A program made the position numbers and the translations under genes. The notes under the pieces are model-generated. The model saw nothing but the letters and a program-made list of their open reading frames with translations, was not told the DNA's origin and did not search any database. This document shows positions 4,500 to 62,175 of a DNA stretch of 64,000 bases, piece after piece (position 1 is the first letter of the stretch; every line of letters starts with the position of its first letter). Source of the DNA: a virus; the IMG/VR virus record IMGVR_UViG_3300017963_000254, positions 1 to 64,000 of that record, one strand, 5' to 3'.

Positions 4500-7400
4500 A
4501 TGCCACAGCTCATCAAAGACATCGACACCGGCGACGTAGAGCCGGTTCGCCTCATAGACACCGCGCGTTCGCGCGGTGCTTTCGTATTCGATCTCGAGAC
4601 TACAGGTCTCGTGCCCAGGCGTGACCGTATCGAGGGCATCGCCTTCTACGTTCCGCCTGACGAGCCGACGCAGACACCCGAGCTGCGGGCCTGGTACCCG
4701 TTCATCCCCGACTCGTATCGCACGTGGGTTCAGCCTGACGATGGCGGCAAGCCGATCGTCAAGAACCTCCGGGCGGCGATGCCCCAGGCCGAGACGATGG
4801 CAGCGCTCCGGCCGCTGTTCGAGGAGAGCCCGGGAACGATCGCGGTCGCCCACAACTGCCTTCAATACAACACGCGCGTTTTGCTTGCTGATGGCTCAAC
4901 CGAGCTTATCGGGAAGATCGTCAACCAGCGGTTGCCTGTATCTGTCATGTCGTGGGATGGCGAGCGGTTTGTCGCAAAGCGGGTAACGAACTGGTGGCGG
5001 AACGGCCGGAGAGACGACTGGTACAAGCTGACCCTGTCTCACAAACCCGTGGGCGCGTGCCTGTACGTTACCGGCGACCACGAGGTCTACTTGTCGAATG
5101 AGGAGAAGAGGCGAGTAGCAGACCTTCGGCCCGGCGATGTGCTGCTGCGGTCAGAACCGCTTCTCTCTCCAGCGCAGAAGCAAGTGGTGCTCGGGACCGC
5201 GCTCGGAGACGGGAGTTTCACTAGAACATCGGCGAGCGTGAGTCACTTCCTGTCTGTGGGACATGCGCCGTCTCAGGAGGAGTATCTCGACTGGAAGGTC
5301 AGGATGCTCGGGCGCATGGTCAGTTCTCGATGGGAGGAGGCCAACAATCGCGGTTTTAGCGCCGCCGATGGTCGGATCATCAAGCTGCGGACAATCAACA
5401 GTGAGCAGTTCAGTCGTGCTGCCGAGACCGTTGTGGTGAACGGCCGGCGGCGGATTTCAGAAGAGGTGCTGGAAAACCTCGACGCTCGTGGGCTCGCCGT
5501 CTGGTACATGGATGACGGCAGCGTATGCGTCCGTAGAGGCGCGCTCTCCGCTGTTCGTCTACATGTCTACGCCTACCCGATTGACGACGTCGAACGTCTC
5601 TGCCACTGGCTCGCCGAGCGGTGGAGCATCATCGCCAAGAAGAGAAAGAAGACCGATCGCGGCGAATTCAAGGGCTACTACATCGAGATGACTGGAGAGA
5701 ACGCGCTCGCATTCTCCAAACTCGTTGCGCCGTTCGTGGTCCCGTCGATGTCGTACAAGCTGGCGCCCGGCGACCGGGGCGCGTTCGTCGATTGGACCGA
5801 GCGATTCGAGCATCCATCGCCGGCGACAGTGGTCAGCGTGGGTCGTTGTGGTATGCCGTCGAGCTACAGTCGAGTAGGTTTCGATCTGGAAGTGGAGGAC
5901 ACGCACCGATACTTCGCCAGCGGGATTCTCGTCTCGAATTGCAAGTTCGATGTCGCGTTCCTCAAGTACGCGAGCGGCTGCGCTCGCGGCTACTGGATGG
6001 AGCGTTCGGCCGTCGATCAGCTGGGCAACCTGGTCCGAGACGACGCCAACGAAGACCCGGCCCAGTGGTGGTGCAACGGCCTGCTCCTCGCCGACTCGAT
6101 GCTGGCCGACTTCCTCTGCGACGAGAACCTCTACCAGTACGGCCTGAAGCACCGGGTGAAGGACGTGCTCGGCCACGAGATGACGACCTACGTGGACGTG
6201 GCCCGTACCCGCAAGCAGGGCGTGCTGTCGTTCATGGCCGACGACGTCCAGACGCTCGGTTACTACGCGATGGAGGACTGCTACTGGACCTGGCGCCTCT
6301 TCGAGGACCGGATGCGGGAGCTGGACAGTCAGACGCCCGGCAAGCCGATTCCAGAGGAGGCGGTCGACGCGCTCGCCTGGCTCTACGAGGAGGGGCTCAA
6401 GCTCAGCCCGTTCGACAAGACTCGGGCGATGGGCAACCTCGAGCGGCTCTTCTGGGGGATCGACATGAGGATCTGCCAGATTCTCGAAGAGATGGAGAGC
6501 ACTGGCATCCTCATCGACTGGAAGTGGCTCCGGCAGGTCACCAAGGATCTCGAGGAGAAGAAGGAGAAGATCATCCGGCGGATCGAGGAGCGCATCGGCT
6601 GGACGCTGAACCCGAACAGCCAGCCGCAGGTCAGCGCGCTCCTCTTCAGCGCGAAGGAACACGGCGGCCTGGGGCTCAACTCCAAGGGGATCAAGCGCGG
6701 CAAGAGCGGCGGGATCTCGACCGGGTCGAAGGAGATCGGCCACCTACGCCGGGCCGATCCGATCGTGGCCGACATCCTCGACTGGCGATCAGCTGATACC
6801 GTGCGGGCGAACTTCTCCGAGAAGCTCGCTCGGATCGCTCAGGAGGAGCCCGACTGCCGGGTCTACTCTCACTTCAACCAGACCGGGACCGTGATCCATC
6901 GTTTGTCGTGCATCGCCGGATCGTCAAAGCTCGCCGTTCGCGTAGGAAACGACGAATACAAGCGTTCAACCAGAATCTCAGAGCTGTTGCGGTTTAGCGG
7001 CCAGACCGTTACCATCGAGACGCACAAGGGGCGGGAGCGCCGGATTACGCACCTGGTCAACAAGGGTCCGGGCTTCATGTTCGACGTGGAGACCGACGAT
7101 GGCTGCAAGATCCGCTGCACGGCCGACCACCGCTTCCTCACCGAGCGTGGGTGGCGTGCTCTCAAGGACATCCGTGTCGGGGACCGGCTTGTTCGAGCCG
7201 AGTTACGTGCGGCTCCTGCGGCCGGTGGACGGACGACGCTGGGTTCTGGATCGGCCGTCGTTCCTGCGGATCTTCGTGAAGGACACGCGGGCGGTGCGCT
7301 GGAAGATCCCGGACTACGGGCTGTCGAACGGGATCGCGCTGGTCTGCAAGGCGATCTACGGCTGGGAGTTCCCGCACCTGTTTCGGGGAACGCCGACGAA

Positions 7401-9425
7401 GCTGCCGGACCTGGCGGAGATCCTGCCGGAGTTCCCGACGTACGTGAGGCGGGCGCGCTCCAAGGGGTTCGTGCTCTCGCGGGAGTCGTTCCAGGCCGCG
7501 TTCGTGGACAGCGATCTGACGCAGGAGGAGGCGAAGGAGCGGTTCGGCATCGCGCACCAGTCGATGATTCGAGCCGTGAAGCTCTACCGCGAGTTCTCGG
7601 GCCAGCTCAAGGCCAAGCAGGCGCGGCTCATCAGCGCCCGCAAGCTGTCGGCGGAGCCGTTCTTCCCGCAGGAGGAGCTGGAGCGTCGGCTGTCGGCTGG
7701 GATGAGCGTGGAGGAGGTCGCAGCCGATTTGGGAGTCGGGTCATCGCTGGTCCTGATGGATCTGCGGCATCACGGGATCGCGCAGTCGAGCGGGAACGCT
7801 TCGCACTGGCTGGACAGCTTGTCGCAGCCGGAGCTGGATGCGCTGTCGCTGGTGAACCCGGCGATGGGAGCGCTGATCGGGGACGCGGCTACGGACTTTC
7901 CGGCGATGGTCGAGACGTACCAGCGGCTCGCGGAGCTTGCCGCGCTGCTCAAGGCGAGCTGGTCAACGCTCAAGGCGTTGCAGGTGCGCGGCGAGCTGCC
8001 GAAGGCCGCGCTGACCTTTGCCGCGAACGCGCAGGAGATGCGCCTGTCGCGCGCGCTGACGGCGGCCGGGATTCCGCACACACGACTGCTCTGCTTCCAC
8101 AAAAACTGGCAAGCGGACTTCGCGTGGCCGGAGAAGAAGCTGATGGTCGAGGTCGATGGCGAGTTTCACCGGAAGTGCGGGACGACCAAGAAGCGGGACG
8201 CCAGGAAGGCGCGCAAGGCGAAGCAGCTCGGCTACCGAGTCCTGCGCTTCACGACCGAGCAGGTGGACCGGGAGCTGCCGACCGTGGTGCGGCGGATCGC
8301 GGGCGCGCTTGGATGCGCGTTGCCGCGATCACTCCGGTTGGGGTAGAGACCGTCTGGGACATCACGGTCGAGGACGACGAAAGCTACGTCGCGCACGGGT
8401 TCCTGAACCACAACAGCAGCGATCCGGTCAATCTCCAGAACCAGCCGCGCGACCGCAACCTGATCCGCAAGGCGTTCTGCGCCTACTTCGAGGATGAGCT
8501 GGAGCCGGACATGCTCCTGTTCGGTGCCGACTACGGCCAGGTCGAGCTTCGCGTGGCCGCGCACCTGAGCGGCGACGAGGGCATGACCGAGGTCTACCAG
8601 ACCGGCAAGCCGTGCACGCGCGGCCCCGGCGGCGGCGCCTGCGAGCGCTACAAGTGGTGGGAGTGCGAGAACAAGGACGACGACGGGAACTACTGCGGGT
8701 ACACGTGGGTCCCGGAGCAGTGGGATCCGAAGAAGCCCGGCGCCCCTCTCACGTGCCCCAAGTGCGGCGGGCCGGAGATCGGTCATCAGAAGCGGTGCCG
8801 GCACGTCGACCTGCACCAGCGCACGGCCGAGGATGTCGGAGTTCCGAGAAACCCGCTCGCGAAGAACGCGAACTTCGGCTTGCTCTACCGGATGGCCGCT
8901 CCTCGGTTCTGCCAGTACGCTGATCTCTACGACGATCGCGGCGAGCCGATGATCGACTACGCGCAGTCGTTGATCGACGGATGGTTCGCGGCCTACCCGG
9001 CGATCCAGCCGTTCCACGACCGCACCGAGCGCTGGCTGCGCCAGAACGGCTGGTACGCCTGCACACTGACCGGCCGGCGTCGCCGGCTCGACCGGGAGCG
9101 ATGGAAGAACGAGTACCGTGCGGTCACGCAGGGCATCCAGTTTCGCGTCAGCGGTTCGGCACAGGACATTCTCAAGCGTGCCATGGTGGACATCGCCCAG
9201 GAGCGTGAGCGGAGGATCTTCTGGTCGCGGCCAGCTGAGAGCAAGCTCTGGCGAAGGCTCCGCTACATCATCCAGGTGCACGACGAGGTCATGCTCCAGG
9301 GGCCGGCGGTGCTCAAGGACGAGACGATCGATCTGATCAACACGAAGATGTGCGGCGCGGCCACGTTGAGCGTGCCTCTGACGGCGGACTGCAAAAGCGG
9401 GCGCACTTGGGATGACATTCACTGA
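4500..9425 (+). CDS. polA: Family A DNA polymerase (3'-5' exonuclease plus polymerase) with two inteins
   Basis: ExoI FDLETTG, ExoII AHN|CKFD, ExoIII YAMED, RLS|SSDPVNLQN, motif A ADYGQVELR, motif B AKNANFGLLY, motif C QVHDE. Confidence 0.95.
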   Translation: MPQLIKDIDTGDVEPVRLIDTARSRGAFVFDLETTGLVPRRDRIEGIAFYVPPDEPTQTPELRAWYPFIPDSYRTWVQPDDGGKPIVKNLRAAMPQAETMAALRPLFEESPGTIAVAHNCLQYNTRVLLADGSTELIGKIVNQRLPVSVMSWDGERFVAKRVTNWWRNGRRDDWYKLTLSHKPVGACLYVTGDHEVYLSNEEKRRVADLRPGDVLLRSEPLLSPAQKQVVLGTALGDGSFTRTSASVSHFLSVGHAPSQEEYLDWKVRMLGRMVSSRWEEANNRGFSAADGRIIKLRTINSEQFSRAAETVVVNGRRRISEEVLENLDARGLAVWYMDDGSVCVRRGALSAVRLHVYAYPIDDVERLCHWLAERWSIIAKKRKKTDRGEFKGYYIEMTGENALAFSKLVAPFVVPSMSYKLAPGDRGAFVDWTERFEHPSPATVVSVGRCGMPSSYSRVGFDLEVEDTHRYFASGILVSNCKFDVAFLKYASGCARGYWMERSAVDQLGNLVRDDANEDPAQWWCNGLLLADSMLADFLCDENLYQYGLKHRVKDVLGHEMTTYVDVARTRKQGVLSFMADDVQTLGYYAMEDCYWTWRLFEDRMRELDSQTPGKPIPEEAVDALAWLYEEGLKLSPFDKTRAMGNLERLFWGIDMRICQILEEMESTGILIDWKWLRQVTKDLEEKKEKIIRRIEERIGWTLNPNSQPQVSALLFSAKEHGGLGLNSKGIKRGKSGGISTGSKEIGHLRRADPIVADILDWRSADTVRANFSEKLARIAQEEPDCRVYSHFNQTGTVIHRLSCIAGSSKLAVRVGNDEYKRSTRISELLRFSGQTVTIETHKGRERRITHLVNKGPGFMFDVETDDGCKIRCTADHRFLTERGWRALKDIRVGDRLVRAELRAAPAAGGRTTLGSGSAVVPADLREGHAGGALEDPGLRAVERDRAGLQGDLRLGVPAPVSGNADEAAGPGGDPAGVPDVREAGALQGVRALAGVVPGRVRGQRSDAGGGEGAVRHRAPVDDSSREALPRVLGPAQGQAGAAHQRPQAVGGAVLPAGGAGASAVGWDERGGGRSRFGSRVIAGPDGSAASRDRAVERERFALAGQLVAAGAGCAVAGEPGDGSADRGRGYGLSGDGRDVPAARGACRAAQGELVNAQGVAGARRAAEGRADLCRERAGDAPVARADGGRDSAHTTALLPQKLASGLRVAGEEADGRGRWRVSPEVRDDQEAGRQEGAQGEAARLPSPALHDRAGGPGAADRGAADRGRAWMRVAAITPVGVETVWDITVEDDESYVAHGFLNHNSSDPVNLQNQPRDRNLIRKAFCAYFEDELEPDMLLFGADYGQVELRVAAHLSGDEGMTEVYQTGKPCTRGPGGGACERYKWWECENKDDDGNYCGYTWVPEQWDPKKPGAPLTCPKCGGPEIGHQKRCRHVDLHQRTAEDVGVPRNPLAKNANFGLLYRMAAPRFCQYADLYDDRGEPMIDYAQSLIDGWFAAYPAIQPFHDRTERWLRQNGWYACTLTGRRRRLDRERWKNEYRAVTQGIQFRVSGSAQDILKRAMVDIAQERERRIFWSRPAESKLWRRLRYIIQVHDEVMLQGPAVLKDETIDLINTKMCGAATLSVPLTADCKSGRTWDDIH
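4857..5939 (+). mobile_element. Intein Pol-1 (361 aa) with LAGLIDADG endonuclease
   Basis: Starts CLQYNTRV, block B VTGDH, LGTALGDG and AVWYMDDG, ends SGILVSN|C; splits ExoII. Confidence 0.93.
6909..8414 (+). mobile_element. Intein Pol-2 (502 aa); endonuclease lies in an alternative frame
   Basis: Starts CIAGSS, block B CTADHRF, ends VWDITVEDDESYVAHGFLNHN|S; central ~370 aa are low-complexity Ala/Gly/Arg in the intein frame. Confidence 0.9.
7174..8346 (+). CDS. Nested +1-frame DUF559/Vsr-like endonuclease with HTH-like segments, inside intein Pol-2
   Basis: C-terminus WQADFAWPEKKLMVEVDGEFH...RDARK...LGYRVLRF; GC-rich third positions fall in this frame; AAGGA 5 nt before GTG7174 (alternative TTG7189). 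Confidence 0.85.
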   Translation: MSGTGLFEPSYVRLLRPVDGRRWVLDRPSFLRIFVKDTRAVRWKIPDYGLSNGIALVCKAIYGWEFPHLFRGTPTKLPDLAEILPEFPTYVRRARSKGFVLSRESFQAAFVDSDLTQEEAKERFGIAHQSMIRAVKLYREFSGQLKAKQARLISARKLSAEPFFPQEELERRLSAGMSVEEVAADLGVGSSLVLMDLRHHGIAQSSGNASHWLDSLSQPELDALSLVNPAMGALIGDAATDFPAMVETYQRLAELAALLKASWSTLKALQVRGELPKAALTFAANAQEMRLSRALTAAGIPHTRLLCFHKNWQADFAWPEKKLMVEVDGEFHRKCGTTKKRDARKARKAKQLGYRVLRFTTEQVDRELPTVVRRIAGALGCALPRSLRLG

Positions 9426-12612: not shown

Positions 12613-12881
12613 GTCTCGTTCGGGCGTCGTGCCAGTTCTGTCGCGGTCCGGTCTGGGCGGATGACCGGGGTACGATGGAGCTGCACAAGGACGCAAGGGG
12701 CGCGACATGTGAGGGGGCAGGCCGCCGGATTGACCGGAGCCTGATCCCCTCATGGCACCCGATGCACTCGTGCGGGATTCACTGCGACGGCCAGGACGGC
12801 ATGTTCTCTCGCTGCAACCAGGCGAGGCTGCGAGGGCCACCGTCGGCTGTCGATCAACTCAGCAAGCTGGTGGATGAATGA
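12609..12881 (+). CDS. Small Cys/His-rich protein ending in SAVDQL motif
   Basis: GTGA overlap; CQFC..H..C; C-terminal PPSAVDQLSKLVDE. Confidence 0.6.
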   Translation: MSLVRASCQFCRGPVWADDRGTMELHKDARGATCEGAGRRIDRSLIPSWHPMHSCGIHCDGQDGMFSRCNQARLRGPPSAVDQLSKLVDE

Positions 12882-14611: not shown

Positions 14612-14935
14612 ATGACCGCCGACATCTGGCCGCCGCCCGGCTACTTCTGGTCCAAGAACCCGACCATCACGACGCGGGACAGGACCGACGTGCTCGTTCC
14701 GCTCGAGGCCGTAGCTCTCGGCGAGGTGATGCGCTACCAGCTGCCCGAGACGCCGGCCGAGCCGGGCTCTGTCTTCGTGGACGGCCATCTCTACTCGCTG
14801 GCGACCGGCGAGCTGCTCGACCAGGACGGGACGCTCGCCGGCTCGGTGGACTTCGATACGGGGATGATCGAGATCGACACCTCCGTGAGCCCCGGCCTCA
14901 GCTCGCGCCGCGCCCAGTATGTCGTCGCGGCTTGA
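14612..14935 (+). CDS. Hypothetical beta-rich protein
   Basis: GC3-biased frame; GSVDFDTG repeat-like motif. Confidence 0.55.
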   Translation: MTADIWPPPGYFWSKNPTITTRDRTDVLVPLEAVALGEVMRYQLPETPAEPGSVFVDGHLYSLATGELLDQDGTLAGSVDFDTGMIEIDTSVSPGLSSRRAQYVVAA

Positions 14936-15146
14936 GGTGACCGGCGAGTTCGGCCAGGTCGATACGCCAAACGGTCCGATCTCCAAGCACTACGACGTCG
15001 CGATGGAGCCGCTCCGCGTCCTGCTCATGGAGCCGTCAGCGATCGATCGGCTCGCTGCGCTCGAGGATCCAGAGATCGCCGCGCGAGTGGAGCGGGCCGA
15101 CCGCTTCCAGTCCTACTACGGCGTGATAGACGTCACGGCGCTCTAG
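14919..15146 (+). CDS. Small protein with SAIDRL motif
   Basis: EPSAIDRLAALEDP. Confidence 0.55.
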   Translation: MSSRLEVTGEFGQVDTPNGPISKHYDVAMEPLRVLLMEPSAIDRLAALEDPEIAARVERADRFQSYYGVIDVTAL

Positions 15147-15835: not shown

Positions 15836-17302
15836 ATGAGTTCTGCGTCTACGGTCGCGATCATGCGCGGTGAGCTGGGCATCCACCTCAGCGAGCTGGA
15901 CGACGATCAGCGAGAGTTACTCGAGCAACAGCTGACCCTGGTCTCGAGGCCCTGGGGCGACAACCCGCCCAAGACGGTCCGCTGCTACCAGGAGAAGGAC
16001 GGCCGCCTCTGGATCCCGCGCCACTTCGAGCCGATGTCGATGTGGCAGCTCGTGGACAGCTGGGAGTGGAGCACCGGCCGCCATCATCAGTTCCAGGTCC
16101 AGGCGAAGCTCGACCCCGAGCGCGGTCAGGTCAGGGCTGTGCCGGCGATGATCGAGTACCTCAAGCGACACGGCGCCGGCGTCCTTCGTTCTGGCACAGG
16201 CACAGGCAAGACCGTGGTGGGGCTGATCATTGGCGCGGCCTTCGAGTGCTTCATCGGGATCCCGGTCTACAACGGGCACATGATGGACCACTGGACCGAG
16301 GACGCGATGAAGGTGCTCGGCCTGTCCGAGGACGACATCGGAATCGTGCAGAGCGACCGCTGCGATCTGGGCAAGCCGGTCACGATCATGATGGTCCAGA
16401 GCCTCCTCGCGCGCAGGTACCCGGACGAGCTGTACGAGCAGATCGGCTTCCTGATCGGCGATGAGACGCCGCACTTCGGCGCACCCGAGTGGAAGGCGAC
16501 CGTGGGGATGTTCCCGGCGCGCTACCGCCTCGGCCTCACGGCCGATCCGAAACGGAAAGACGGCCTCGGCGCGTTGATCAACTGGACGTTCGGCGAGGTC
16601 GGCTACACCGCCAGGCGCGTCCGCACGAAGGACATCAAGCCGCCGACCGTGACGGCGATCTTCTGGAAGAAGACCTACCCATGGGGCTCCTACTGCAAGT
16701 GGGAGAAGGACTCGACCGGTCAGTGGGCGATGGGCGACGAGGGGCACCCGTCCAAGTACGACAACGTGCTTGCCGCCGACGAAGATCGCACCAGGATGCT
16801 CGTGGCGGAGATCAAGAACGCGGCCGTCAAACAGCGGTCGATCTTGGTGTTCTCGGCGCGCGTCGAGCACTTGGTGGAGATGCGGGAGCTGCTGGCACGC
16901 CAGCTTGACCCGCCGACGGCGATCGAGAGACTAGCGCAGCTCCGGGCACCGCCGCCGAACCTACCCGTGCTTGGTCACCTGAAGAGCGGCCTGAAGAAGA
17001 GTCAACGGGAGTGGGTGCTCAAGGCGGACATCATCTTCGCGACCTACGCGATGGCGCGGGACGCGTTCAACGCGCCCAAGCTCGACACCGAGTTCTTCGC
17101 CACGCCTCCGGGCGATGTCGAGCAGCCCGCCGGCCGTCTCCGCGAGAAAGCCGAGGACCACGACCGCAAGCCGCTGATGATCGTGGAGGTCTACGAGGAT
17201 ACGCCCTACGGACGCGAGAAGTGGGTCAAGCGGCGCGACTGGTACAGGCAGCGAGGCTTCAAGGTCCAGGAGGTCACCCGGACTCCGAGGAGACGCAAGT
17301 GA
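15836..17302 (+). CDS. Superfamily 2 helicase
   Basis: SGTGTGKT, DETPH, LGLTADP, QPAGRLR. Confidence 0.85.
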   Translation: MSSASTVAIMRGELGIHLSELDDDQRELLEQQLTLVSRPWGDNPPKTVRCYQEKDGRLWIPRHFEPMSMWQLVDSWEWSTGRHHQFQVQAKLDPERGQVRAVPAMIEYLKRHGAGVLRSGTGTGKTVVGLIIGAAFECFIGIPVYNGHMMDHWTEDAMKVLGLSEDDIGIVQSDRCDLGKPVTIMMVQSLLARRYPDELYEQIGFLIGDETPHFGAPEWKATVGMFPARYRLGLTADPKRKDGLGALINWTFGEVGYTARRVRTKDIKPPTVTAIFWKKTYPWGSYCKWEKDSTGQWAMGDEGHPSKYDNVLAADEDRTRMLVAEIKNAAVKQRSILVFSARVEHLVEMRELLARQLDPPTAIERLAQLRAPPPNLPVLGHLKSGLKKSQREWVLKADIIFATYAMARDAFNAPKLDTEFFATPPGDVEQPAGRLREKAEDHDRKPLMIVEVYEDTPYGREKWVKRRDWYRQRGFKVQEVTRTPRRRK

Positions 17303-23430: not shown

Positions 23431-23699
23431 CGCCAGAGAAGGTACACGCCTTTGTCGAGGAGCTGGACAAGATCAACGACCTGCTTCTCGAGGTCCAGGC
23501 TGACGGCGCTTCCGATGGCGGGAGTGTGAACACGAAACTGGACATGCTATGCTACGCGGTCGCTGCGCTCGTCCGGCTTGAGAGCGAGCGGCTCTCGGCC
23601 GAGCTGAGCGACCACGAACAGGCGGAACCGGATGTCCCGACTCAGCTCGAGTTGTTTCCCGATTTACCGCCTCCAACTCCCGACGTGACCGAGACTTAG
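23427..23699 (+). CDS. Small acidic protein with beta-clamp-binding-like QLELF motif
   Basis: ATGA overlap; PTQLELFPD near C-terminus. Confidence 0.6.
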   Translation: MTPEKVHAFVEELDKINDLLLEVQADGASDGGSVNTKLDMLCYAVAALVRLESERLSAELSDHEQAEPDVPTQLELFPDLPPPTPDVTET

Positions 23700-23728
23700 G
23701 TCGCTCAGGAGAAAAACTACAAATTGGC

Positions 23729-25084: not shown

Positions 25085-25551
25085 CGACCGACAACGGGAA
25101 CCTGCAAGCGGCGCTGGACGCGCTCGGCGGCGCACATCAGCAGAAGAAGGAGGGCACCGGCCCCATCGAGCCCACGCTCGTCTCGAGCGGCAGCGCGGTC
25201 GAGGATCTGGGCAAGCTGGTCGAGCGGAACGCCGGCGTCCCGCAGGGCGTCCTGGCGATGGCCGCGCGCGCTGCGCAGGCGGCAGACGAGGCGCGCGAGG
25301 CTGACGCGAAGGCCAAGATGCTCAAGGCCGAGCTGACCGAGGCGATGAAGGCAGCTGAGGTCAAGAAGATCCACATGGAGGATCGACAGCCGATCGCGTT
25401 CAAGACGAAGAGCGACCGGCAGACGACGCGCAAGGCGATCATCGGTGTGATCGGCGAGGAGGTCGGGACGAAGCTCTGGGCCAACCTGCCTACGCCGACC
25501 AAGGTCTACTTGGACATTCCCAAGAGGGAGGTCGACGACCCCGAACAGTGA
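25081..25551 (+). CDS. Hypothetical coiled-coil protein
   Basis: AGGAGG upstream, ATGA overlap. Confidence 0.65.
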   Translation: MTTDNGNLQAALDALGGAHQQKKEGTGPIEPTLVSSGSAVEDLGKLVERNAGVPQGVLAMAARAAQAADEAREADAKAKMLKAELTEAMKAAEVKKIHMEDRQPIAFKTKSDRQTTRKAIIGVIGEEVGTKLWANLPTPTKVYLDIPKREVDDPEQ

Positions 25552-25555
25552 GCCA

Positions 25556-25912
25556 GTGAGCCAGTTCGTCGCCACCAAGCCGTTCTGCAAGCCGCCGCCC
25601 GGCGAGAATCCGAAGCTCATCATCCTCGATTCGGCCGGAACGAGCCCGGGGATGTACTGGAGCTACCGGGCCTGCCTGTTGGAGCGCGGCGACATGGTGG
25701 TCTGGCACTCCGTAGAGCACGGCGACCGTCTGGCCCGGGTGTCGAGACCTGATGGGACCGGCCCATGGGACCCTGTCCATATCCGGCTGCTGCGGCCTGT
25801 CGAGATCCCCAACGGTCGTGGCTCGGTCGATCGGCGATGGGGGTTCACGGCCGAGCAGGGCGATCTGTCTGAACCCAGTGCTGTAGATCTACTTGCGGAC
25901 CTGGGCAGGTGA
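25556..25912 (+). CDS. Hypothetical protein ending in SAVDLL motif
   Basis: C-terminal EPSAVDLLADLGR. Confidence 0.6.
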   Translation: MSQFVATKPFCKPPPGENPKLIILDSAGTSPGMYWSYRACLLERGDMVVWHSVEHGDRLARVSRPDGTGPWDPVHIRLLRPVEIPNGRGSVDRRWGFTAEQGDLSEPSAVDLLADLGR

Positions 25913-35100: not shown

Positions 35101-38100
35101 CAAGAAGTTCCTGTCGGCCGCACTCGACGGCAAGAAGCACACCGGAGCTGGCGCCGCGCCGGCTCAGTTCCTCTTCAAGCACGACGGTTACCGAGCGCTC
35201 GGCGAGGCGGCTGCCAACCGGGTCCAGTCGCTTCTCGGTCTGGGAGGCGTCGGCACGAACAGCTACGTCATGTCGCGAGGCGGCAAGACCGGCTTCGTGC
35301 AGTTCTTCCGCGTCACCAAGAACCTGCGGCACAAGTACGGTCACGGCGGTAAGCCGTGGCTGGGTCTTCCGGGGAGCGGCAAGGCCAACCCGCCCGAGGA
35401 TGAGCGGAAGCGCCTGGCGCAGGGCCTTCAGCTGGCTCTCGTGGGCAACTGGCTGATCGACGACAAGGACGATCACGGCGGCAACTTCGTGTTCGACGAG
35501 TCCGATCAGATCACCGGGATCGACCACGGGCAGTGCTGCAAGTTCTTCGACTCGGGCGGTACTCTGCTCTCCCACTGGGACTGGTCTACCGGCAAGATCG
35601 CCAACAAGGATGGCAAGGCCACGCTCGAGGCCAACAAGGGGTGGCCGAAGCGGATGCTCTACGACTGGGCGGCCGGCGCTGACCTGGGTCCCGACCAGAC
35701 CGCGATCCCTCTCCTGGCGCTGACAGACCCGGCGTTCGAGAAGATGATCCAGCGCGCCGAGGGCATTCCCGACGACGTCTACGACAAGATGTGGCGTCCA
35801 TATGCCGAGGGAGCCGTGTCGGCCGCGCAACGGGACGGTGAGCAGCGGCTCTCGCGATACTCCCACAACCCGAAGGACAGGACGGTCGAAGGCTTCCTCG
35901 ACGGGATGCAGAAGCGGCGCAAGTCGATCCGCAAGCAGGTCGCTGAGCTGTACTCGATGCTGGCGAAGAAGCGCGCACAGGCGCTCGCCGCGCACGGGGA
36001 CACGAGACCCCTGGCCGAGATCGAGGCCGACGTCCGCGAGCAGCTCGGCTTAGACAAGTTCGCGGCCGGAGCGGTTACCGACAAGCAAGCGGCCAAGATG
36101 TCGCCGCTGGCCGACGAGATCCAGGGCAGCGCTGACGCGCCCGGATGGGACGAGTCGAAGCTGCCCGAGTCATCTCACGTGCCGACGGCGGAGACGATCG
36201 CCGAGTGGGGCGTGAAGGGCTACGACATGGCCGTGGGCGGTGATGCCATCAAGGACGGTCGTGTCACGTTCCGACAGGTTGGCGAGATCCCGATGGTGGA
36301 CTTCCGGCTGGACAACCAGGCTCGCGCGGCGTTGCAGTCCCGTCTGCCCGGGTATTCGGGTGGGTCCACTGCGCCGCCCAAGCCGGCAGAGCCGTACTTG
36401 CCGCCGTTCACGCCTCCACCCAAGCCTACGTTCAACCAGTCGAACGAGTCTCTGGGAATGCAAGCGCTGACCGGTGGCGATCCAGGCGGCATGACCGGGC
36501 TCGCCAAGGGCGGCGTCACCGGAGATAACTGGACGAAGGTCGAGAAGTACGTCAGCAAGCACTACCTGCTGGATGGCGGGCCGGTCAAGCAGCCGAAGGG
36601 TTCGGTCTACTGGCTGAAGGGGCTGAAGGCCAGCCGCGATATGAAGCTGAGCGCGGATCCGGTAGTTGCGGCGGCCGGAGCGCACTACGAGAAGGAGCTG
36701 CTGAAGTTCGGCGAGGAGGGCGGCGAGGACGGGTTCGTGTTCAAGGCCAAGGACGATGTGCCAGAGGCCGATCGTACGATCACGCCGTTCAAGCTGACGC
36801 CGGAGCTGAAGAAGCTCCAAGACGCGGCGAAGGCAGATGTCGAGGCAGCGCACGCGAAGTCTGTCGAGGAGGCTAAGGCGGCGCACGAGAAGGAGGTGGA
36901 GGGGATCAAGGACAAGCACGCCGCAGCGATGGTCGTGTGGCAGGAGAAGTATGACGCCTGGAGCAGTGGGGGAGAGGCGGCAAGCGTCATCAAGGACGCC
37001 GTCAAGTACCCTCGGCCCCAGCAGCCGATCGGCGCGAAGCAGGAATCTGCCGGCGGTAAGGCTGGAGGAGGCTCGAAGTGGGACGGGTCGTGGGGCAACG
37101 CCTGGTACGCCGGAGGATCCGCTTACGAGATCGATCTGACGGATGCTGTAACACAGCTGGGCGGAGTCGCGACGGGCGAGAAGGATAGCCGTTTCGTGAT
37201 TCGCTACAACACCGGAAAGACGGCGGACGTCGATCCTAAGTCGGTGTCACAGAGCACAGCCGGGCTGCCCACCTTCTCCGGTAAGACCACCATTCAGTTC
37301 CCAAAGGGGTCGAACAAGGAGCAGATGCGCGCCATGATGAAGCGCGCGTTCGAGGTATTGGGCATCGACGCGCGGCCGGCCTCGGAAGAGGACCACGAGC
37401 TGAACTATGTGCGCAAGATGGCCTGGCTCCTCGGTATCGAGGGCGCGCACGGGACGGCGGTGAGCGGCGGCGCGGATGCTCGGTGGCACAAGGTCGAGCC
37501 GGCCGGTGGCACCCGCAGGGAGCGCATCGACTTCTGGATCGGCAAGCTCAAGAAGAAGGTCGGCTACGATCCGCGATATGCTCCGCAGCTGGCGAAGAAC
37601 GGGACACCCAAGACGGTACCGGGCAGCCACGGCAAGGTGATGATGCAGGGAGACGGCAAGGTGCCGAATCCCGCGTGGCGTCCACAGGCCAAGCGTGTTG
37701 CGAATCGCGTCGCCCACCGGCGGTTCGATTACACCGACGAGGCAATGATCCACCAGCTCTCGCTGGCCGATCCGCATGTTCCGGTGCAGCAGTCGAGCGA
37801 CCGGCTCGGCAAGATCCTCCAGGGCACGATGATGTCGTCGGCCGAGCGCACGGCGAACGGTATTCTGACGCCGTCCGGTGGTACAGAAGGCTCGGCCAGC
37901 GCCGACGCGGCGACTGGTGGAGGGCTTTCGGTGTTCCTCTACAACCGAAAGGTCAGTACTCACCACGTCATGGGCACAATGGGCAGAGTGGAGACGCGGA
38001 TGGTGTTCCACCCGTCCATTCACCTGTACACGAACACCTACGCCGTGCCCGGCGATTCCTACGGCTCGAAGGTCTCCAAGAGCTGGACCGAAAAACGGCA

Positions 38101-45655: not shown

Positions 45656-47578
45656 ATGAGCGATTCGATCGACAAGCTGCTGCACCTGGCGATGGCAGGT
45701 CCGTTTGCCGACTTCGCGTTACCCGAGGAAGCGGCCGAAGCGGATCAGCTGGACGAAGCGCTTGACCCGTTCCAGCGCATGACCGTGGACGACATGATCC
45801 GGGCCTGGATCAAGAAGCACGGGAAGACCGGCCTCGACAGGCTCATCAAGACGATCAAGAAGAAGGTCCGGGGCATCGAGAGCGCCAGCATCAACAAGCG
45901 GCTCGCGATCGTCGGCGGCATCTCCGAGGGCGACGACCTCGACATGCTCTCGCCCGAGGAGAGGATGCTCCTGGGCCTCGAGCGCGGCTCGAGTTCCGGC
46001 CCGTGGTTCGGTGACGACATGCCGGCCGGTCCCCGGCCGCTGATGGAGGGGGACACCTCGGGCTACTTCCCCCAGCCGATGACGCTGGACGAGCACCGCT
46101 CGGACGCTCTGCCGCTCGTCGAGGAGGTGCTCGACTGCGCCGAGCCGACCGTGTCGTTCTCGGCCGGCCCGTGCTTGGACGAGACCTACACGCCGGAGCA
46201 GATGAAGCGCTACAAGCGCGGCGGCGGCAAGCCTGGCAGTGTCGGCGACTGGCTCTACCACTTCGACGAGATGGACATCCGGCCGCAGTGGGTGAAGAGG
46301 GCCAGGTCGATGATGGGGGCCGAGGAGTTCGACTCGTCCTGCGTCAAGGCGCTCGCGCGCAAGGACCAGAAGCAGGTCGTCGAGTTCCTGGAGGGGAACA
46401 AGAAGGCCGAGGCGATGGCCAAGGTCTTGAACTACGCGTCGGGCGCGAAGACCGAGGAGCTGATCCACGAGGAGCGCTCTTTCAAGCGCGGCGATGTGGT
46501 CAAGTTCAAGGGCAAGCGCGAGCGGCGGCGCTACGTGATCACGTTCGTCGACCAGTTCGGTATGCACAACATGGTCGCGCTGTCCGGCAGCGAGCGCGGG
46601 TCGGCGCCGTCCGGGCACAAGACGAGCGAGCTGGAGCTGGACAAGGACCAGTCGATCGTGTTCTCCGGGAAGAAGGCCAAGCAGCTGTTCCGCCGCTATG
46701 ACCAGTACCAGGGTGCCCACTGGGGCGGCAAGATCAACAAGCCGCACAAGGTCTCCGAGGACGAGGCGCTGTCCGAGATGGAGGCCGGCGACATCGACGG
46801 CCAGATGAAGATCATCCGCGCGAAGGTCATCAAGGGCGCGAAGCCCACTCGCGCCCGCCGGCTCGCCGGCTGCCTGCGCGCACTGCGCACGGGCGGGATC
46901 ACCGTCTCCGGCCAGTCCCAGACCAACCTGAACCCGGTGCCCAAGGCCGAGAGGAACAAGGAAGACCAGCCGAAGGACGACACGCCCGGCGAGGTGGACG
47001 AGGACACCGGCCCGCCGGACCAAGTGAACACGGAGGATGTCATGAACCTGAGTGATGCGATCCGGCGCTTCCGGGGCGAGGACGAAGAGCCCGCTCCGAG
47101 GCCCGCAAGGAAGCCCCAGACGGAGTCCCATGGCGCGCGGCCGGCTTACGGCGAGTCGTTCGACGACCTGCGCGACAAGGGAATGGCGCTCGATGACTTC
47201 GGCTCGTTCGACGACGACGGTGACGTCGAGTTCGCCGAGGCGATGCTGAACAACGACCCGACCCTGACCGGGATGGACCGCCGGCTGGCCCAGCTGGAGG
47301 CCAACATCCCCGTGAAGGGCGGCAAGTCCAAGAGCAAGTTCCGCCAGCCCTACAAGGGTCCGGGCAAGGGCGTGTACGGTCCGGTTTCGACCCCGGCCGA
47401 TCCCGAGGCGAAGGCGGCTGCCACGCGCAGCACCGCCGGCGTGAAGGGTCCGGGCTACACCCCGGACGGTCGTGAGGAGGTCGATGTTCGGACCGAGCAG
47501 CGTGAGCCTGCTACAGCCCACGAGCTGGATCTCTTCGCCGAAGGCATGGAGTACCCGACCGACCTGATCGGCCGCTAG
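45656..47578 (+). CDS. Modular putative head polyprotein
   Basis: LDEA, ISEG, LMEG, LDET, LSEM; KOW/SH3-like module FKRGDVVKFK; possible internal start ATG47042. Confidence 0.65.
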   Translation: MSDSIDKLLHLAMAGPFADFALPEEAAEADQLDEALDPFQRMTVDDMIRAWIKKHGKTGLDRLIKTIKKKVRGIESASINKRLAIVGGISEGDDLDMLSPEERMLLGLERGSSSGPWFGDDMPAGPRPLMEGDTSGYFPQPMTLDEHRSDALPLVEEVLDCAEPTVSFSAGPCLDETYTPEQMKRYKRGGGKPGSVGDWLYHFDEMDIRPQWVKRARSMMGAEEFDSSCVKALARKDQKQVVEFLEGNKKAEAMAKVLNYASGAKTEELIHEERSFKRGDVVKFKGKRERRRYVITFVDQFGMHNMVALSGSERGSAPSGHKTSELELDKDQSIVFSGKKAKQLFRRYDQYQGAHWGGKINKPHKVSEDEALSEMEAGDIDGQMKIIRAKVIKGAKPTRARRLAGCLRALRTGGITVSGQSQTNLNPVPKAERNKEDQPKDDTPGEVDEDTGPPDQVNTEDVMNLSDAIRRFRGEDEEPAPRPARKPQTESHGARPAYGESFDDLRDKGMALDDFGSFDDDGDVEFAEAMLNNDPTLTGMDRRLAQLEANIPVKGGKSKSKFRQPYKGPGKGVYGPVSTPADPEAKAAATRSTAGVKGPGYTPDGREEVDVRTEQREPATAHELDLFAEGMEYPTDLIGR

Positions 47579-60117: not shown

Positions 60118-60556
60118 CCAGACGATCCGAGACGCGCTGCGATGCCCAAAGTGCGGCCAGCGCGGCAAGATTCGGCCCTCCGCGTCCGGCGCACACGATC
60201 CGGGCGTCTCGATCCGGCTGGCCTGCGCCGACTGCGGGATGCTCGGCACGTTCGTGCCGCCCGACCCTGTCGCCTGGAGCATGATCCTGCCAGCTGATGC
60301 GGTCGAGAAGATCCAGGCGTTCCTCGACAACAGCGGCCTGCCCGAGAACGCGGTGGACCTCCTCGCGACGATGCGCCGGAAGGACGAGCGGGTCGAGGAG
60401 CTGGAGGCGGAGATCCGGCAGATCGCCCAGATGGTCCACCAGGCGTACCACGGCGGCCGGCCGCCCGACGACCTCTGCGACGTGACGTGGGACAAGTGCG
60501 CGCTCGGGATCTGCCGCCGCGCTCAACACGTCCTGGGGGTGAGCGACGATTCGTGA
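60089..60556 (+). CDS. Zn-ribbon hypothetical protein
   Basis: CPKC, CADC; NAVDLLATM motif variant. Confidence 0.6.
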   Translation: MRVSGATRANQTIRDALRCPKCGQRGKIRPSASGAHDPGVSIRLACADCGMLGTFVPPDPVAWSMILPADAVEKIQAFLDNSGLPENAVDLLATMRRKDERVEELEAEIRQIAQMVHQAYHGGRPPDDLCDVTWDKCALGICRRAQHVLGVSDDS

Positions 60557-61080
60557 TCATCACGGAGCTGGGGCCGTGGAACCTCAAGGACCACCTGGAT
60601 GAGTCGATGGTCGCGGTCGGGGTGCTCGAGAACATCCGGTGCCCGGAGTGCGATCGACAGGCGCGAGTCGGCTGGAAGCGAGTGGGCGTCTCCTCGACCG
60701 AGTTCTACTGCGTGGACTGCGGCTACCTCGCGACGTTCGCTGGCACCTTCGAGCTGGAGACGGTCATCCCGTCAGGCATCTGCATGGCCGACCATGTTGG
60801 AGGACTGTCGTTGATAGCGCAGACGAGGCTCACCGAGGCGCGGATCGGTCAGTCGGCCGTGGACAAGCTGGCGAAGATCGCCTACGACGATCTGGTCGGG
60901 AAGCTCAAGCCGCTCATCGTGCGGCAGGACGAGCTGGAGAAGGCGCTCGAGGAGCTGGCGCAGTTCCGGCACCAGCGGCACGTCGTGCAGACGCACATCG
61001 ACGGCTGGCGCGATTGCTGGAAGCCGGAGTGCAAGCGGATGCAGAATCTCTTTGCGGCGAGGGTGGAGATCGATGAGTGA
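60553..61080 (+). CDS. Zn-ribbon hypothetical protein with SAVDKL motif
   Basis: CPEC, CVDC; QSAVDKLAKI; GTGA overlap. Confidence 0.6.
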   Translation: MIITELGPWNLKDHLDESMVAVGVLENIRCPECDRQARVGWKRVGVSSTEFYCVDCGYLATFAGTFELETVIPSGICMADHVGGLSLIAQTRLTEARIGQSAVDKLAKIAYDDLVGKLKPLIVRQDELEKALEELAQFRHQRHVVQTHIDGWRDCWKPECKRMQNLFAARVEIDE

Positions 61081-61441
61081 CGACCCGCTTCAGATCAGCG
61101 TGAGCTACCCGATGGACGGTCTGCCGAACAAGAACGGCCGGGTCTATCCCCCCGAGCTGTTCAAGGAGGCGATGGAGAAGGCCGTGCGCGAGGGCAAACT
61201 CAAGGTCGAGATCGGTGGCCAGTGCGAGCCGTGGCTGAAGAACAAGCCGATCTCCCTCGGCGGCAAGCGCTTCGTCAATCCCAAGATGCAGATCGAGAGC
61301 ATGGACCTGGGACCGGACGGGCTACAGGCCGTGGTCCGCGTCGAGGAGCAGGCGGGAGCGGTGGATCAGCTGGCGTCGCTCGCCGACGAGGACGAGTCGA
61401 AGTCCAGCTCGGTTTCCGAGGGCGACGGCCAGACGCGCTGA
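61073..61441 (+). CDS. Truncated T4-gp21-like prohead protease homolog
   Basis: PNKNGRVYP motif; no catalytic His/Ser motifs visible; GAVDQLASL near C-terminus. Confidence 0.5.
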   Translation: MSDDPLQISVSYPMDGLPNKNGRVYPPELFKEAMEKAVREGKLKVEIGGQCEPWLKNKPISLGGKRFVNPKMQIESMDLGPDGLQAVVRVEEQAGAVDQLASLADEDESKSSSVSEGDGQTR

Positions 61442-62175
61442 AACCCGTAGCCGCGCTCGGACACCACGAGGATGTAGATGCGGCCGTTGATCCGCGCTCG
61501 GTAGAGCGCTTCCCCGTTCTCGTGGAAGCGTCCGTCGTAGCCGGGCGCCTGGCATCCGGCGACCTTCAGAGCGGTCTCCAAGACCTCATCCAGCATCTCG
61601 AGCCGGCGGGATAGCGCGTCTCGGTAGTCCCGAGCAGCGTCGAACTCGTCTCCCAGCGCGATCTCCTCTGGCCGCGCGATGGCGGTCAGCCGGTCGATCG
61701 CGCTCGTCAGGCCCTTCCGATCGCCCCACTCCTCGAGCGTGTATGTCTCGCTGTTGCCCCGATCGTCCCACTCTGTGAACTGCCGCTCGTGGCTCGACCA
61801 GTGTCGGTGGTAGATGCGGCCGAGCGCTTTCGATCGCTCCCAGACGTCTTCCCAGACCGGAAGCGCGACCTCGTAGAGCCGCCGGGCGATGCGCCATCGA
61901 AGCGCCTCGATCCGCCGGACATCGTTGAGCTTGTCGCGGCGAACGAGCCAGGCAGCGCGGTAGCCTGACTTCCCGATCTCGGCGTACCAGCGGCCGATCA
62001 CGCGCTTGCGCCGGTAGACGCTCCCGTCGTCGGCTAGCTGGGTGCGGTGGCCGTAGTCCTCGATCGGCAACATCCCGTGGACGCTTCCGTCGTCCCGGAT
62101 GATGCCGACGTACGGGTAGATGGAGCGCTTGTAGTCCTGTAGCTCGCGGTTCGTTCGGAGTGCGGTGGCTGTCAC
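61366..62175 (-). CDS. Hypothetical protein with SAIDRL motif
   Basis: GC3 bias on minus strand; TSAIDRLTAI. Confidence 0.7.
   Translation of the reverse strand: MTATALRTNRELQDYKRSIYPYVGIIRDDGSVHGMLPIEDYGHRTQLADDGSVYRRKRVIGRWYAEIGKSGYRAAWLVRRDKLNDVRRIEALRWRIARRLYEVALPVWEDVWERSKALGRIYHRHWSSHERQFTEWDDRGNSETYTLEEWGDRKGLTSAIDRLTAIARPEEIALGDEFDAARDYRDALSRRLEMLDEVLETALKVAGCQAPGYDGRFHENGEALYRARINGRIYILVVSERGYGFQRVWPSPSETELDFDSSSSASDAS

Follow-up and report, generated by a model that had tools for sequence, protein, structure and literature searches.

A peptide of about ten residues with the consensus [PE][PL]-S-A-[VI]-[DE]-[RQ]-L-[AG]-[EDA]-[LIV]-[AV] recurs in the proteins of a jumbo phage and its relatives, and behaves like an undescribed portable protein address label that is mostly placed at C-termini. 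It is a portable, selected, N-capped amphipathic helix that is acquired or lost as a whole. The DNA analyzed here (the window, 64,000 nucleotides) is part of a 74.5-kb contig, a fragment of the genome of an uncultured phage of ~275 kb and 65% GC. For comparison, we used a complete relative (G001, 415 proteins) and a fragment of a distant relative (G002, 266 proteins), and three tagged lineages were compared in total: G000/G001, G002/G003 and G006/7.

Abundance of the tag and relationship of its carriers

An earlier note on this DNA had proposed ten such peptides in about nine unrelated proteins. All ten translate as claimed at the coordinates detailed below and lie in the frame bearing the local GC3 coding signal. 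The carriers named there are thus real but were undercounted, as a position matrix identified 13 coding-frame sites in the window, adding those at 25192 and 37142 and a weak one at 49615. A further 5 to 7 sites are present in the remaining part of the contig (64-74.5 kb), the range being due to two borderline frame calls, and about a sixth of the proteins on the source fragment are tagged. In G001, 123 sites were found in 119 of the 415 proteins, as opposed to fewer than one in each shuffled proteome, and the G002 fragment carries the tag in 104 of its 266 proteins.

The strict pattern SA[VI]D.L[AGST].[LIM] was observed seven times in frame-filtered coding segments, whereas 1000 shuffles within proteins contained 0.003 matches on average, and two relaxed forms gave 12 versus 0.029 and 13 versus 0.124 matches; for strict and relaxed patterns alike, the observed count was reached in none of the 1000 shuffles. 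Similarly, SA[VI][DE].L[AG].[LIV] occurred eight times on the contig (0.006 expected by composition) and 54 times in G001 (0.020 expected), so that overall 7-10 strict copies on the contig face an expectation of about 0.003-0.006. Other high-GC viral contigs, which were found by a DNA pattern scan, contained at most 2-3 copies each. Shuffles and analytic expectation together rule out chance or composition as the origin of the tag.

At the sensitivity of BLASTP and Pfam the carriers are indeed unrelated. After masking of the motif, just one of 68 tagged proteins fell into any paralog cluster by BLASTP, and no family common to the carriers was recognized by Pfam among 65 and 102 tagged proteins. 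A single large paralog family is therefore not supported, as neither approach revealed a common body. The claim that no described motif matches the tag was also borne out, since neither literature searches nor Pfam analysis of the carriers yielded a description. A conserved but untagged 93-aa protein within the tagged arrays likewise had no match in Pfam or the protein atlas.

Location of the tag within proteins and genomes

The DNA polymerase A gene (4467..9425, plus strand; matches to DNA_pol_A, LAGLIDADG_2 and Intein_splicing) contains two copies. It is interrupted by two intein-like inserts, both missing from G001, and a DUF559 open reading frame is located in another frame. SAVDQLGNL (6006..6032, plus strand, 34.0 bits) resides in an insertion of the 3'-5' exonuclease domain, within the extein following the first intein. 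Alignment to homologs revealed that this insertion is lineage-specific, as it is missing in more distant PolA homologs and in bacterial Pol I; this was established with metagenomic homologs, while alignments to solved structures stopped short of the tag regions. In an AlphaFold2 model of G001 PolA, the counterpart forms a helix (residues 151-159) in a loop with pLDDT<50 (residues 149-169). The second peptide, EAVDALAWL (6357..6383, plus strand, 12.4 bits), is situated in the exonuclease-polymerase linker, and in relatives this position is occupied by a clear tag or by non-tag sequence, or is missing. It is present in the coding frame as claimed; its assignment as a tag is less secure, since the weak score and the G001 model, in which its counterpart (residues 266-274) is a packed helix with a pLDDT of about 86, suggest that it may be a structural helix. 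Along with those at 60347 and 49615, it is one of several low-scoring internal copies that may be ordinary helices. Among relatives, three alternative PolA loop sites are tagged in differing combinations, and none is tagged in more distant homologs. The first site is tagged in G001 and untagged in the PolA of the window. In total, PolA carries two to three tags in the G000/G001 lineage and none in the G006/7 lineage.

The other copies are located on the plus strand, with one exception. Two of them almost end their proteins: SAVDQLSKL (12843..12869, 21.0 bits) lies three residues before the stop codon of a small open reading frame (about 12609/12675-12881) for which no Pfam family was found, and SAVDLLADL (25877..25903, 31.3 bits) lies two residues before the stop codon of a 118-aa protein (25556-25912). 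In the G001 ortholog of the latter the tag is kept as SAIDLLADL with altered flanks; an AlphaFold2 model built from a two-sequence alignment draws residues 107-116 as helical but is unreliable (pLDDT 35). SAIDRLAAL (15036..15062, 33.8 bits) belongs to a 75-aa protein (14919-15146; SAVERLAAL in the G001 ortholog) and is followed by an EDPEIxxRV...D extension, a combination that also occurs in about six other G001 proteins. GAVDQLASL (61355..61381, 23.8 bits) of a 122-129-aa protein (61052-61441) is positioned 19 residues before the stop codon and precedes an acidic tail; G001 has GAVDQLAAV. An XPB/Rad25-like SF2 helicase (15836-17302) carries TAIERLAQL (16916..16942, 21.7 bits) between the flanks DPP and RAPPPN, while its ResIII and XPB matches are confined to the N-terminal half. 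This tag is conserved in G001 as TAIERLARL.

The remaining copies are internal. SAVEDLGKL (25192..25218, 19.8 bits) in a 156-aa protein (25081-25551) and the D-variant DAVTQLGGV (37142..37168, 19.6 bits) in a 2137-aa protein (31970-38383) are tag-like and correspond to DAIEDLGKL and, at the same place, DVVSQLGAV in G001. NAVDLLATM (60347..60373, a weak 12.1 bits; DAVDLLATM in G001) is found in a small Zn-ribbon, Lar-like protein (60089/60239-60556) with a weak Lar_restr_allev match. SAVDKLAKI (60853..60879, 17.7 bits) of a 175-197-aa protein (60487/60553-61080) is identical in G001. SAIDRLTAI (61678..61704, minus strand, 14.6 bits) of a 269-aa protein (61366-62175) reads NAIDRLACL in G001, and the G002 ortholog of this protein is still tagged at 30% overall identity.

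Both the positions of the sites and the PolA comparison agree with the proposal that the tag is placed at C-termini or in loops inserted into conserved enzymes. For most copies the distance to the stop codon is 1-12 residues, and the proteins concerned are small and have no other detectable mutual similarity, and 74 of the 123 G001 sites are located at most 12 residues from the C-terminus. Tag position 8 is always followed by at least one residue, with tails of 1-12 variable residues and often more. The tag is preceded by a short Pro/Glu-rich lead-in with a weak upstream pattern of [LIV] at position -4 and E/D at -5, and most copies lie just upstream of the start of the next gene. The carriers are located in small-gene arrays and in the replication module and include several enzymes, namely PolA, the XPB-like helicase, RNase H, a pyrimidine-dimer-glycosylase-like protein, a methylase and a nuclease. 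No clear copies had been noted in the head-protein block, and the large conserved late block is nearly devoid of the tag, with at most three tagged genes in G001 (about 196-262 kb).

The tag is a capped helix under selection at the peptide level

The N-capped amphipathic helix that had been proposed for the peptide is supported by three observations. Positions 0 and 3 covary as a capping box, with S..[DE] at 183 of 188 sites and D..[TS] at 47 of 61, and an acidic residue occupies one of the two positions in 305 of 320 tags (95%). Positions 1, 2, 5, 6, 8 and 9 are hydrophobic or small and form one helical face, and the PolA copy is helical in the AlphaFold2 model.

Codons vary synonymously, as serine is encoded by both TCN and AGY and third positions track the codon usage of the genome. 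Between orthologs of G001 and G002/3, identity amounts to 74% at the key tag positions, whereas the flanks reach 37% and the remainder of the protein 41%. Of 177 conserved residues, 95 are encoded by different codons. Conservation thus acts on the peptide, as proposed, and codon analysis rules out a DNA repeat as the source of the tag, although a residual GATC bias is present: the tag aspartate is encoded by GAT rather than GAC more frequently than expected from its context (35:16 before C versus 39% GAT genome-wide; odds ratio 3.4, p = 3e-5), indicating that some DNA-level bias exists. The tagged or untagged state is concordant in 131 of 140 ortholog pairs. The tags of G001 and G003 follow one common consensus, although the core proteins of their lineages are only about 50-60% identical. 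In the G006/7 lineage, the consensus has moved as a whole to D-[VAP]-V-E-R-L-A-E-L-A, a lineage-wide shift that would be expected if one reader serves all carriers. Taken together, codon variation, capping covariation, ortholog conservation and the PolA loop insertions identify the tag as a portable helix under selection.

Proposed docking on a common partner

Docking is the most likely role of such a portable helix, and the observations are probably best explained by an address tag whose carriers meet one common partner. The tag would form a three-turn amphipathic helix with a capped N-terminus, placed behind a short link near the C-terminus or grafted into surface loops of enzymes, and its small and hydrophobic face (A1, V/I2, L5, A/G6, L8, A/V9) may plug into a groove of the partner. 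In this way, at least 100 proteins, most of them small and probably early, could be gathered together with several DNA enzymes in one place or handled by one machine. We think that the partner may be phage-encoded and part of the conserved replication module, in which case the carriers would be recruited to replicating phage DNA. We know of no precedent for one docking partner that serves a third of a proteome. Each of the three tagged lineages encodes the candidate readers, i.e., two MoxR-vWA pairs and the beta sliding clamp; therefore, phyletic patterns do not discriminate between them, and no phage-encoded candidate is singled out. Another phage protein may also act as the reader, an assignment that is possible but tentative.

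A MoxR AAA+/vWA machine is a similarly tentative candidate. Either the CobS/CobT-like pair would be a chaperone that remodels or recruits tagged proteins, or the second pair would process or remove tagged, possibly early, proteins at a set time. The CobT-like vWA protein (1..1812, plus strand; CobT_C, CobT and VWA matches), whose 5' end is cut by the contig end, is itself untagged, possesses the MIDAS sequence D-I-S-G-S and is partnered by a CobS-like MoxR AAA+ protein. In G001, both are located in the replication operon, with the gene order clamp, DnaC-like, DnaB, primase, CobS-like and CobT-like vWA. The vWA protein of the second pair (MoxR2/DUF2201) has a zincin-like metallopeptidase domain, and this pair is among the best-conserved non-structural proteins (58-66% across lineages). 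Both pairs have an intact MIDAS (D-x-S-G-S), for which the acidic residue present in 95% of the tags might provide a metal ligand, and a near-terminal tag would suit engagement by an AAA+ ring. To our knowledge, however, no MoxR-vWA system serves many clients. In addition, the capping box by itself accounts for the acidic residue, and it is hard to see why a phage would degrade its own polymerase, a carrier of up to three tags, at a set time. Peptide capture, to which the tag could be compared, has been proposed for vWA domains of MoxR systems (PMC7159879), and the same MoxR/vWA-peptidase pair has been reported in T4-like jumbo phages (PMC7824862). The peptides bound by MIDAS sites are extended or unstructured according to the description available (PMC7159879). 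The tag, in contrast, is a capped helix, and no many-client tag is known for such systems.

It is somewhat doubtful that the phage beta sliding clamp is the reader. In that case, the tag would be an orthogonal clamp-binding motif through which the polymerase, enzymes of repair and processing and numerous small proteins are tethered to phage DNA during its replication. The replication operon starts with a gene for a complete DnaN homolog of three domains, which is conserved in each of the three lineages, and the tagged enzymes look like a list of clamp clients. The tag core [QR]-L-[AG]-[DE]-L is loosely reminiscent of the canonical QL[SD]LF motif, which PolA lacks; a regular-expression search of the 415 G001 proteins for canonical clamp motifs gave only two terminal matches, none of them in PolA. 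Like clamp-binding peptides (QL[SD]LF/QLxLxL, the PIP box, and the C-terminal tails of T4 gp43, gp33 and gp55 on gp45), the tag is short and located at termini and in loops of unrelated proteins (PMC2988020, PMC12867686). Such peptides occur on polymerases, nucleases, repair proteins and even transcription factors, and the clamp gene is present in the phage. Clamps also serve non-replicative phage proteins, as T4 gp45 acts in late transcription (PMC2988020) and MuC of phage Mu is a further example (PMC12867686). However, the tag marks about 30% of the proteome and matches no such consensus: S-A-[VI]-[DE]-[RQ]-L-[AG]-x-[LIV] differs from the bacterial QL[SD]LF or QLxLx[LF] and lacks the aromatic pair of the PIP box, Q-x-x-[LIVM]-x-x-[FY]-[FY]. 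Moreover, known beta-clamp motifs, which occupy a hydrophobic pocket between domains II and III of DnaN, are bound in extended form and not as capped helices. The T-D-G-H-R-L stretch of solved bacterial clamps, which lines the peptide pocket in E. coli clamp-peptide structures, is TNGMGI, TDGTAI and TDGVRM in the three phage lineages; it is thus non-canonical and differs between G001 and G003, whose tags have one consensus. No clamp loader was found in the phage, more than 100 clamp clients would be unprecedented, and in the G006/7 lineage the clamp and tagged small proteins coexist with an untagged PolA.

Other explanations

A host protein, such as a protease adaptor, a chaperone, the host clamp or RNA polymerase, is an unlikely reader; the tag would then be a degron or a hijacking handle. 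ClpP, Clp-type AAA_2 and chaperonin-60 were not found in the phage, which rules out phage Clp or chaperonin-60 as the reader and means that such activity would have to come from the host. A Cpn10/GroES-like gene shows that chaperone machinery of the host is indeed exploited by the phage. The unchanged consensus in two lineages with strongly diverged core proteins would be expected for a slowly evolving host target, but the shift of the whole consensus in the G006/7 lineage argues against one, and Pfam analysis of the carriers recognized no comparable bacterial motif. Classical C-terminal degrons of the ssrA type require a free C-terminal carboxylate, while the tag is never positioned at the extreme C-terminus, being followed by variable tails or occurring inside loops.

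That no single reader exists, and that the helix instead caps its own protein or mediates homotypic association, thereby stabilizing or oligomerizing many small proteins, appears improbable. The packed PolA helix 266-274 is compatible with such a function, and the weak upstream pattern could represent the last strand of the body. On the other hand, the same ten residues are found in very different contexts, including a loop of the polymerase, a helicase, RNase H and proteins of 60 aa, the main PolA copy is predicted to lie in a low-confidence, protruding insertion, and the tag is conserved far above the bodies of its carriers. An element that acts in DNA or RNA (a junction for recombination, a promoter or operator, or a signal for translational coupling where genes end), with the peptide as a by-product, is hardly credible despite the proximity of most copies to the next gene start and the GATC bias, as it is largely refuted by the codon data, by matches that sit in the coding frame, and by loop-internal copies far from gene ends.

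Comparison with targeting peptides of other systems

Peptides that direct cargo into bacterial microcompartments or encapsulins are terminal amphipathic helices or peptides on a loose linker, which bring unrelated cargo to one shell protein. The C-terminal bias, the Pro/Glu-rich lead-in, the amphipathic pattern and the capping box of the tag resemble these signals, whereas its carriers reside in small-gene arrays and the replication module. As neither microcompartment (PF00936) nor encapsulin (PF04454) shell genes occur in G000-G004, of which G001 is complete, a cargo signal of this kind is ruled out. In T4, too, unrelated proteins are brought to one destination by a peptide encoded by the phage, the capsid-targeting sequence. 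This sequence is N-terminal, is cleaved by the prohead protease at [LI]-x-E and marks virion-internal proteins, whereas the tag is C-terminal or loop-internal, occurs on replication enzymes and is almost missing from the late block. Poxvirus ankyrin host-range proteins provide a further parallel, as many fast-evolving viral proteins with variable bodies share one conserved C-terminal element for a single hub; this F-box-like (PRANC) domain is folded, comprises about 40 residues and docks host Skp1. In contrast, the tag is a ten-residue helix whose carriers include the virus's own enzymes. An import signal of nucleus-forming (chimallin-type) phages is unlikely, since the multisubunit RNA polymerase of such phages was not found, while a sigma-like gene is present.

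Implications for large phages

Known short docking peptides each serve a single hub that has a handful of clients. As a tentative model, a clade of high-GC jumbo phages without a chimallin-type nucleus might sort a third of its proteome by one helical tag, with the polymerase, the helicase, RNase H, repair enzymes and more than 100 small, rapidly evolving early proteins tethered to one phage-encoded, replication-associated hub (an orthogonal clamp or the CobS/CobT-like MoxR-vWA pair) and thereby concentrated on replicating phage DNA. If true, this would be a virus-wide, peptide-coded localization system of a kind undescribed for bacteriophages. The ten-residue tag could serve as a bait in the search for its reader, and foreign proteins might be sent to the destination of its carriers by the same means. 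Through the tag, about a hundred orphan early proteins would be united by a common fate, and its presence on about 30-40% of the viral proteins would mean that the proteome of a large phage is organized by an address code.

Recurrence of the peptide in the window and origin of the contig

The earlier note had pointed to a short peptide, S-A-[VI]-D-x-L-[AGST]-x-[LI], in about nine unrelated proteins and proposed it as a sorting or docking signal for one hub. All ten peptides listed there are exact translations of the DNA and lie in frame with the local GC3 coding signal. The observed counts were never reached in 1000 within-protein residue shuffles with any of three search patterns, of which the note's own strict pattern occurred 7 times (shuffle mean 0.003), an intermediate one 12 times (0.029) and a relaxed one 13 times (0.124). 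On the whole contig, SA[VI][DE].L[AG].[LIV] was observed 8 times versus 0.006 expected from composition. With a position matrix, 13 coding-frame sites scored above 10 bits in the window. The remainder of the contig adds 5 to 7, according to whether two sites of borderline reading frame are included. The peptide is termed tag in the following, its Ser or N-cap residue position 0, and the proteins containing it carriers.

The window covers positions 1 to 64,000 of a viral contig of 74,515 bp (GC 63-67%). By Pfam, it encodes a CobT-like vWA protein (1-1812), a family A DNA polymerase (PolA, 4467-9425, interrupted by two inserts), three N6/N4 DNA-methylase matches (two clear, one weak), a cpYpsA protein, an XPB-like SF2 helicase, MerR, a RecA-like protein, a UDG-family protein and a sigma-70 region 4-like protein. 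PHROGs recognised few genes in the 26-57 kb block, which also contains an ORF of 507 aa that has an HNH endonuclease core (28385-29908) and immediately precedes the ORF at 29868-31592. No relative of the window was found in the GenBank phage collection. Using the helicase as query, we found IMG/VR record 3300029258_002750 (G001; 275,101 bp, direct terminal repeats, rated complete), whose 37-102 kb region is collinear with the contig at 70-92% nucleotide identity. The contig is thus a fragment of a jumbo phage of about 275 kb. IMG/VR record 3300017971_000201 (G004, 159.7 kb) ends in a CobT-like gene (G004:C1:3-788) whose product is 100% identical to that of the window. The 5' end of the contig continues into G004, which therefore represents the adjacent piece of an almost identical phage. 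Two further records are the distant relative G002 and G003, its likely second half, in which the CobT-like protein is 51% identical.

The tag is abundant throughout the phage lineage

In G001, 119 of 415 proteins carried the tag at more than 10 bits and 113 at more than 12 bits, the gene calls being GC3-based and made in this analysis, so that the protein counts carry some error. The corresponding numbers were 104 of 266 in G002, 32 of 156 in G003, 50 of 215 in G004 and about 50 of 348 in the G006/7 records (PolA 48% and clamp 38-39% identical). The matrix found 123 sites above 10 bits in G001 compared to less than one per shuffled proteome, and none in one shuffle each of G002, G003 and G004. 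Among 2.9 million viral contigs searched with a degenerate DNA pattern, those with multiple matches belonged to this clade only, and matches elsewhere were single and at chance level. Most carriers are small, with a median length of 107 aa in G001, where their genes form arrays on both strands between about 100 and 178 kb. In the large conserved block of this genome (about 196-262 kb), no more than three genes are tagged. At gene junctions of G001 and of the contig (for instance contig 72568-72583, minus strand, outside the window), several tagged genes terminate in ADPG-stop, after which a recurrent N-x-[GS]-M is read across the next start codon. The array genes thus appear to share a repeated short sequence at their junctions.

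The full consensus reads [EY][LIV]x[PE][PL]-S-A-[VI]-[DE]-[RQ]-L-[AG]-[EDA]-[LIV]-[AV]-[RDE]. Within G001, 74 of the 123 sites lie at most 12 residues from the C-terminus, 25 lie at 13-50 residues and 24 further away. At least one residue is invariably present after position 8. Position 0 tolerates S, D, N, G, T, P and C, the first five of which are favoured at helix N-caps. Positions 0 and 3 covary reciprocally: Ser is paired with Asp or Glu at 183 of 188 sites, Asp with Thr or Ser at 47 of 61, and Ser never with Thr or Ser, as in a helix capping box. It follows directly from the consensus that the helical wheel has two faces, with the small or hydrophobic positions 1, 2, 5, 6, 8 and 9 inside one 160-degree arc and the polar or charged positions 0, 3, 4, 7 and 10 on the opposite side. 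In the G006/7 lineage the consensus is shifted to D-[VAP]-V-E-R-L-A-E-L-A. In a subset of carriers (window 14919-15146; G001 25086-26936, 46396-46623, 144341-144769 and 158530-158784), another conserved segment 27-46 residues long, [ET]DPE[IV]xxRVxxxD, comes after the tag, which may thereby be extended into a larger module.

Selection acts on the peptide, which is portable between carriers

As proposed earlier, the tag is conserved as a peptide and not as a DNA repeat: codon choice within it matches that of the genome, and Ser occurs as both TCN and AGY. Between G001 and its G002/G003 orthologs, identity reached 74% at the seven key tag positions but was lower in the flanks (37%) and in the remaining protein (41%), and 95 of 177 conserved tag residues differed in their codon. 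This codon variation, together with the elevated identity of the tag, indicates that selection acts on the peptide. The tagged or untagged state agreed in 131 of 140 ortholog pairs. A codon preference was observed at the Asp of position 3: before a codon starting with C, GAT, which creates GATC, was used in 35 of 51 cases in G001 versus 39% genome-wide in this codon context (odds ratio 3.4, p = 3e-5; examples in the window at 6015-6020, 12852-12857 and 15045-15050). GATC occurs in the G001 genome at about three times the mononucleotide expectation.

At the sensitivity of BLASTP and Pfam the carriers proved unrelated. Only 1 of 68 tagged G001 proteins fell into any BLASTP paralog cluster once the nine residues were masked. 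Pfam showed no family common to 65 plus 102 tagged proteins, and no match to the tag was found in the literature searched, in agreement with the earlier view that no described motif resembles it. Single Pfam matches on carriers were to RNase H, DNA methylase, DnaB-like ATPase, staphylococcal-type nuclease, zeta-toxin-like kinase, the L7/L12 C-terminal domain, KOW and phage zinc finger.

Tags are inserted into loops of the DNA polymerase

That the tag occupies insertions in conserved enzymes was borne out for PolA, as neither the more distant homologs nor bacterial Pol I have any of the three segments in which the G001 tag sites lie (residues 54, 150 and 266). In closer relatives, the same three loops contain between one and three tags in varying combinations, and no tag occurs in the G006/7 PolA. 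At the first site, DPVTRLGDV of G001 corresponds to a six-residue stretch in PolA of the window (4620-4640, ORF residues about 62-70), meaning that an entire tag was recently gained or lost between two phages with about 85% DNA identity. In an AlphaFold2 model of G001 PolA (43-sequence alignment, mean pLDDT 83), the main tag was predicted as a helix (151-159) inside an insertion of pLDDT below 50 (residues 149-169), and the first site as a low-confidence loop. The third site, modelled as a packed helix (pLDDT about 86), may for this reason be a structural element. The helicase tag is flanked by DPP and RAPPPN. Two further inserts in PolA of the window, a LAGLIDADG intein (4842-5952, ORF residues about 140-491) and a 1.2-kb segment (7099-8346) that is open in the PolA frame but has a GC3 signal and a DUF559/Vsr-like ORF in another frame, are both absent from G001 PolA.

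Possible role of the tag and candidate partners

These findings fit a docking role, in which a short helix presented by a linker or loop would be recognised by one partner, the reader. Candidates are encoded in a conserved operon upstream of the window, seen in G001 in the order beta clamp, DnaC/IstB-like ATPase, DnaB, primase, CobS-like MoxR ATPase and CobT-like vWA protein, and by a second MoxR AAA+ gene with an adjoining DUF2201 vWA protein (G001:1960-4367, locus L005). All are present in each of the three tagged lineages, and thus presence or absence cannot single out the reader. The conserved proteins of G001 that carry no tag include the clamp, both MoxR-vWA pairs, DnaB, the primase, a 222-aa protein encoded after CobT, a ParB-like protein and a sigma-like protein.

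One of the two MoxR-vWA pairs is a possible, if tentative, reader. The MIDAS motif D-x-S-G-S is kept in both vWA domains, the second pair is strongly conserved, and its vWA-like protein is fused to a putative zincin-like metallopeptidase domain (DUF2201_N). An acidic residue occurs at position 0 or 3 in 305 of 320 tags; however, this is already accounted for by the capping box. The vWA domains of such systems have been proposed to capture peptides, and their ligand is described as extended (PMC7159879), whereas the present tag is a helix. A processing role has been proposed for a MoxR/vWA-peptidase pair in T4-like jumbo phages (PMC7824862). The pair of those phages occurs here, as MoxR and DUF2201, in an unrelated high-GC lineage. 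Another phage protein as reader is likewise a tentative possibility.

The phage beta clamp is a slightly less probable reader. The tagged enzymes resemble a list of clamp clients, PolA lacks the canonical clamp motif, and the clamps of T4 and Mu provide a precedent for serving non-replicative phage proteins (PMC2988020; PMC12867686). Against this stand the untagged PolA of G006/7 and the failure to find any clamp-loader family in the five records searched. The three-domain clamp of G001 (G001:31955-33067; L006:11955-13064) matches a solved clamp with E = 1.5e-18, but the stretch that reads T-D-G-H-R-L in bacterial clamps of solved structure is TNGMGI in it, and across the three lineages the sequence is TNGMGI, TDGTAI and TDGVRM. 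From E. coli clamp structures, we take this stretch to line the peptide pocket; it differs between G001 and G003 even though both share the tag consensus. A host protein is a still less probable reader. A phage ClpX-type reader was rejected, as neither Clp-type AAA_2 nor ClpP was found in these genomes; Cpn60, the RNA polymerase beta-subunit family (Rpb2_6) and microcompartment (BMC) or encapsulin shells were also not found. A Cpn10/GroES-like co-chaperonin gene is present in G001 (23623-24039, minus strand; L006:3626-4039), its Cpn60 partner being absent from the phage.

As a docking helix, the tag would work like clamp-binding peptides, from which it differs in consensus, like the targeting peptides of microcompartments and encapsulins, whose shell genes these phages lack, and like the capsid-targeting sequence of T4, whose N-terminal, cleaved position it does not share. 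Taken together, the findings make it fairly probable that these phages use the tag for docking to a single reader.
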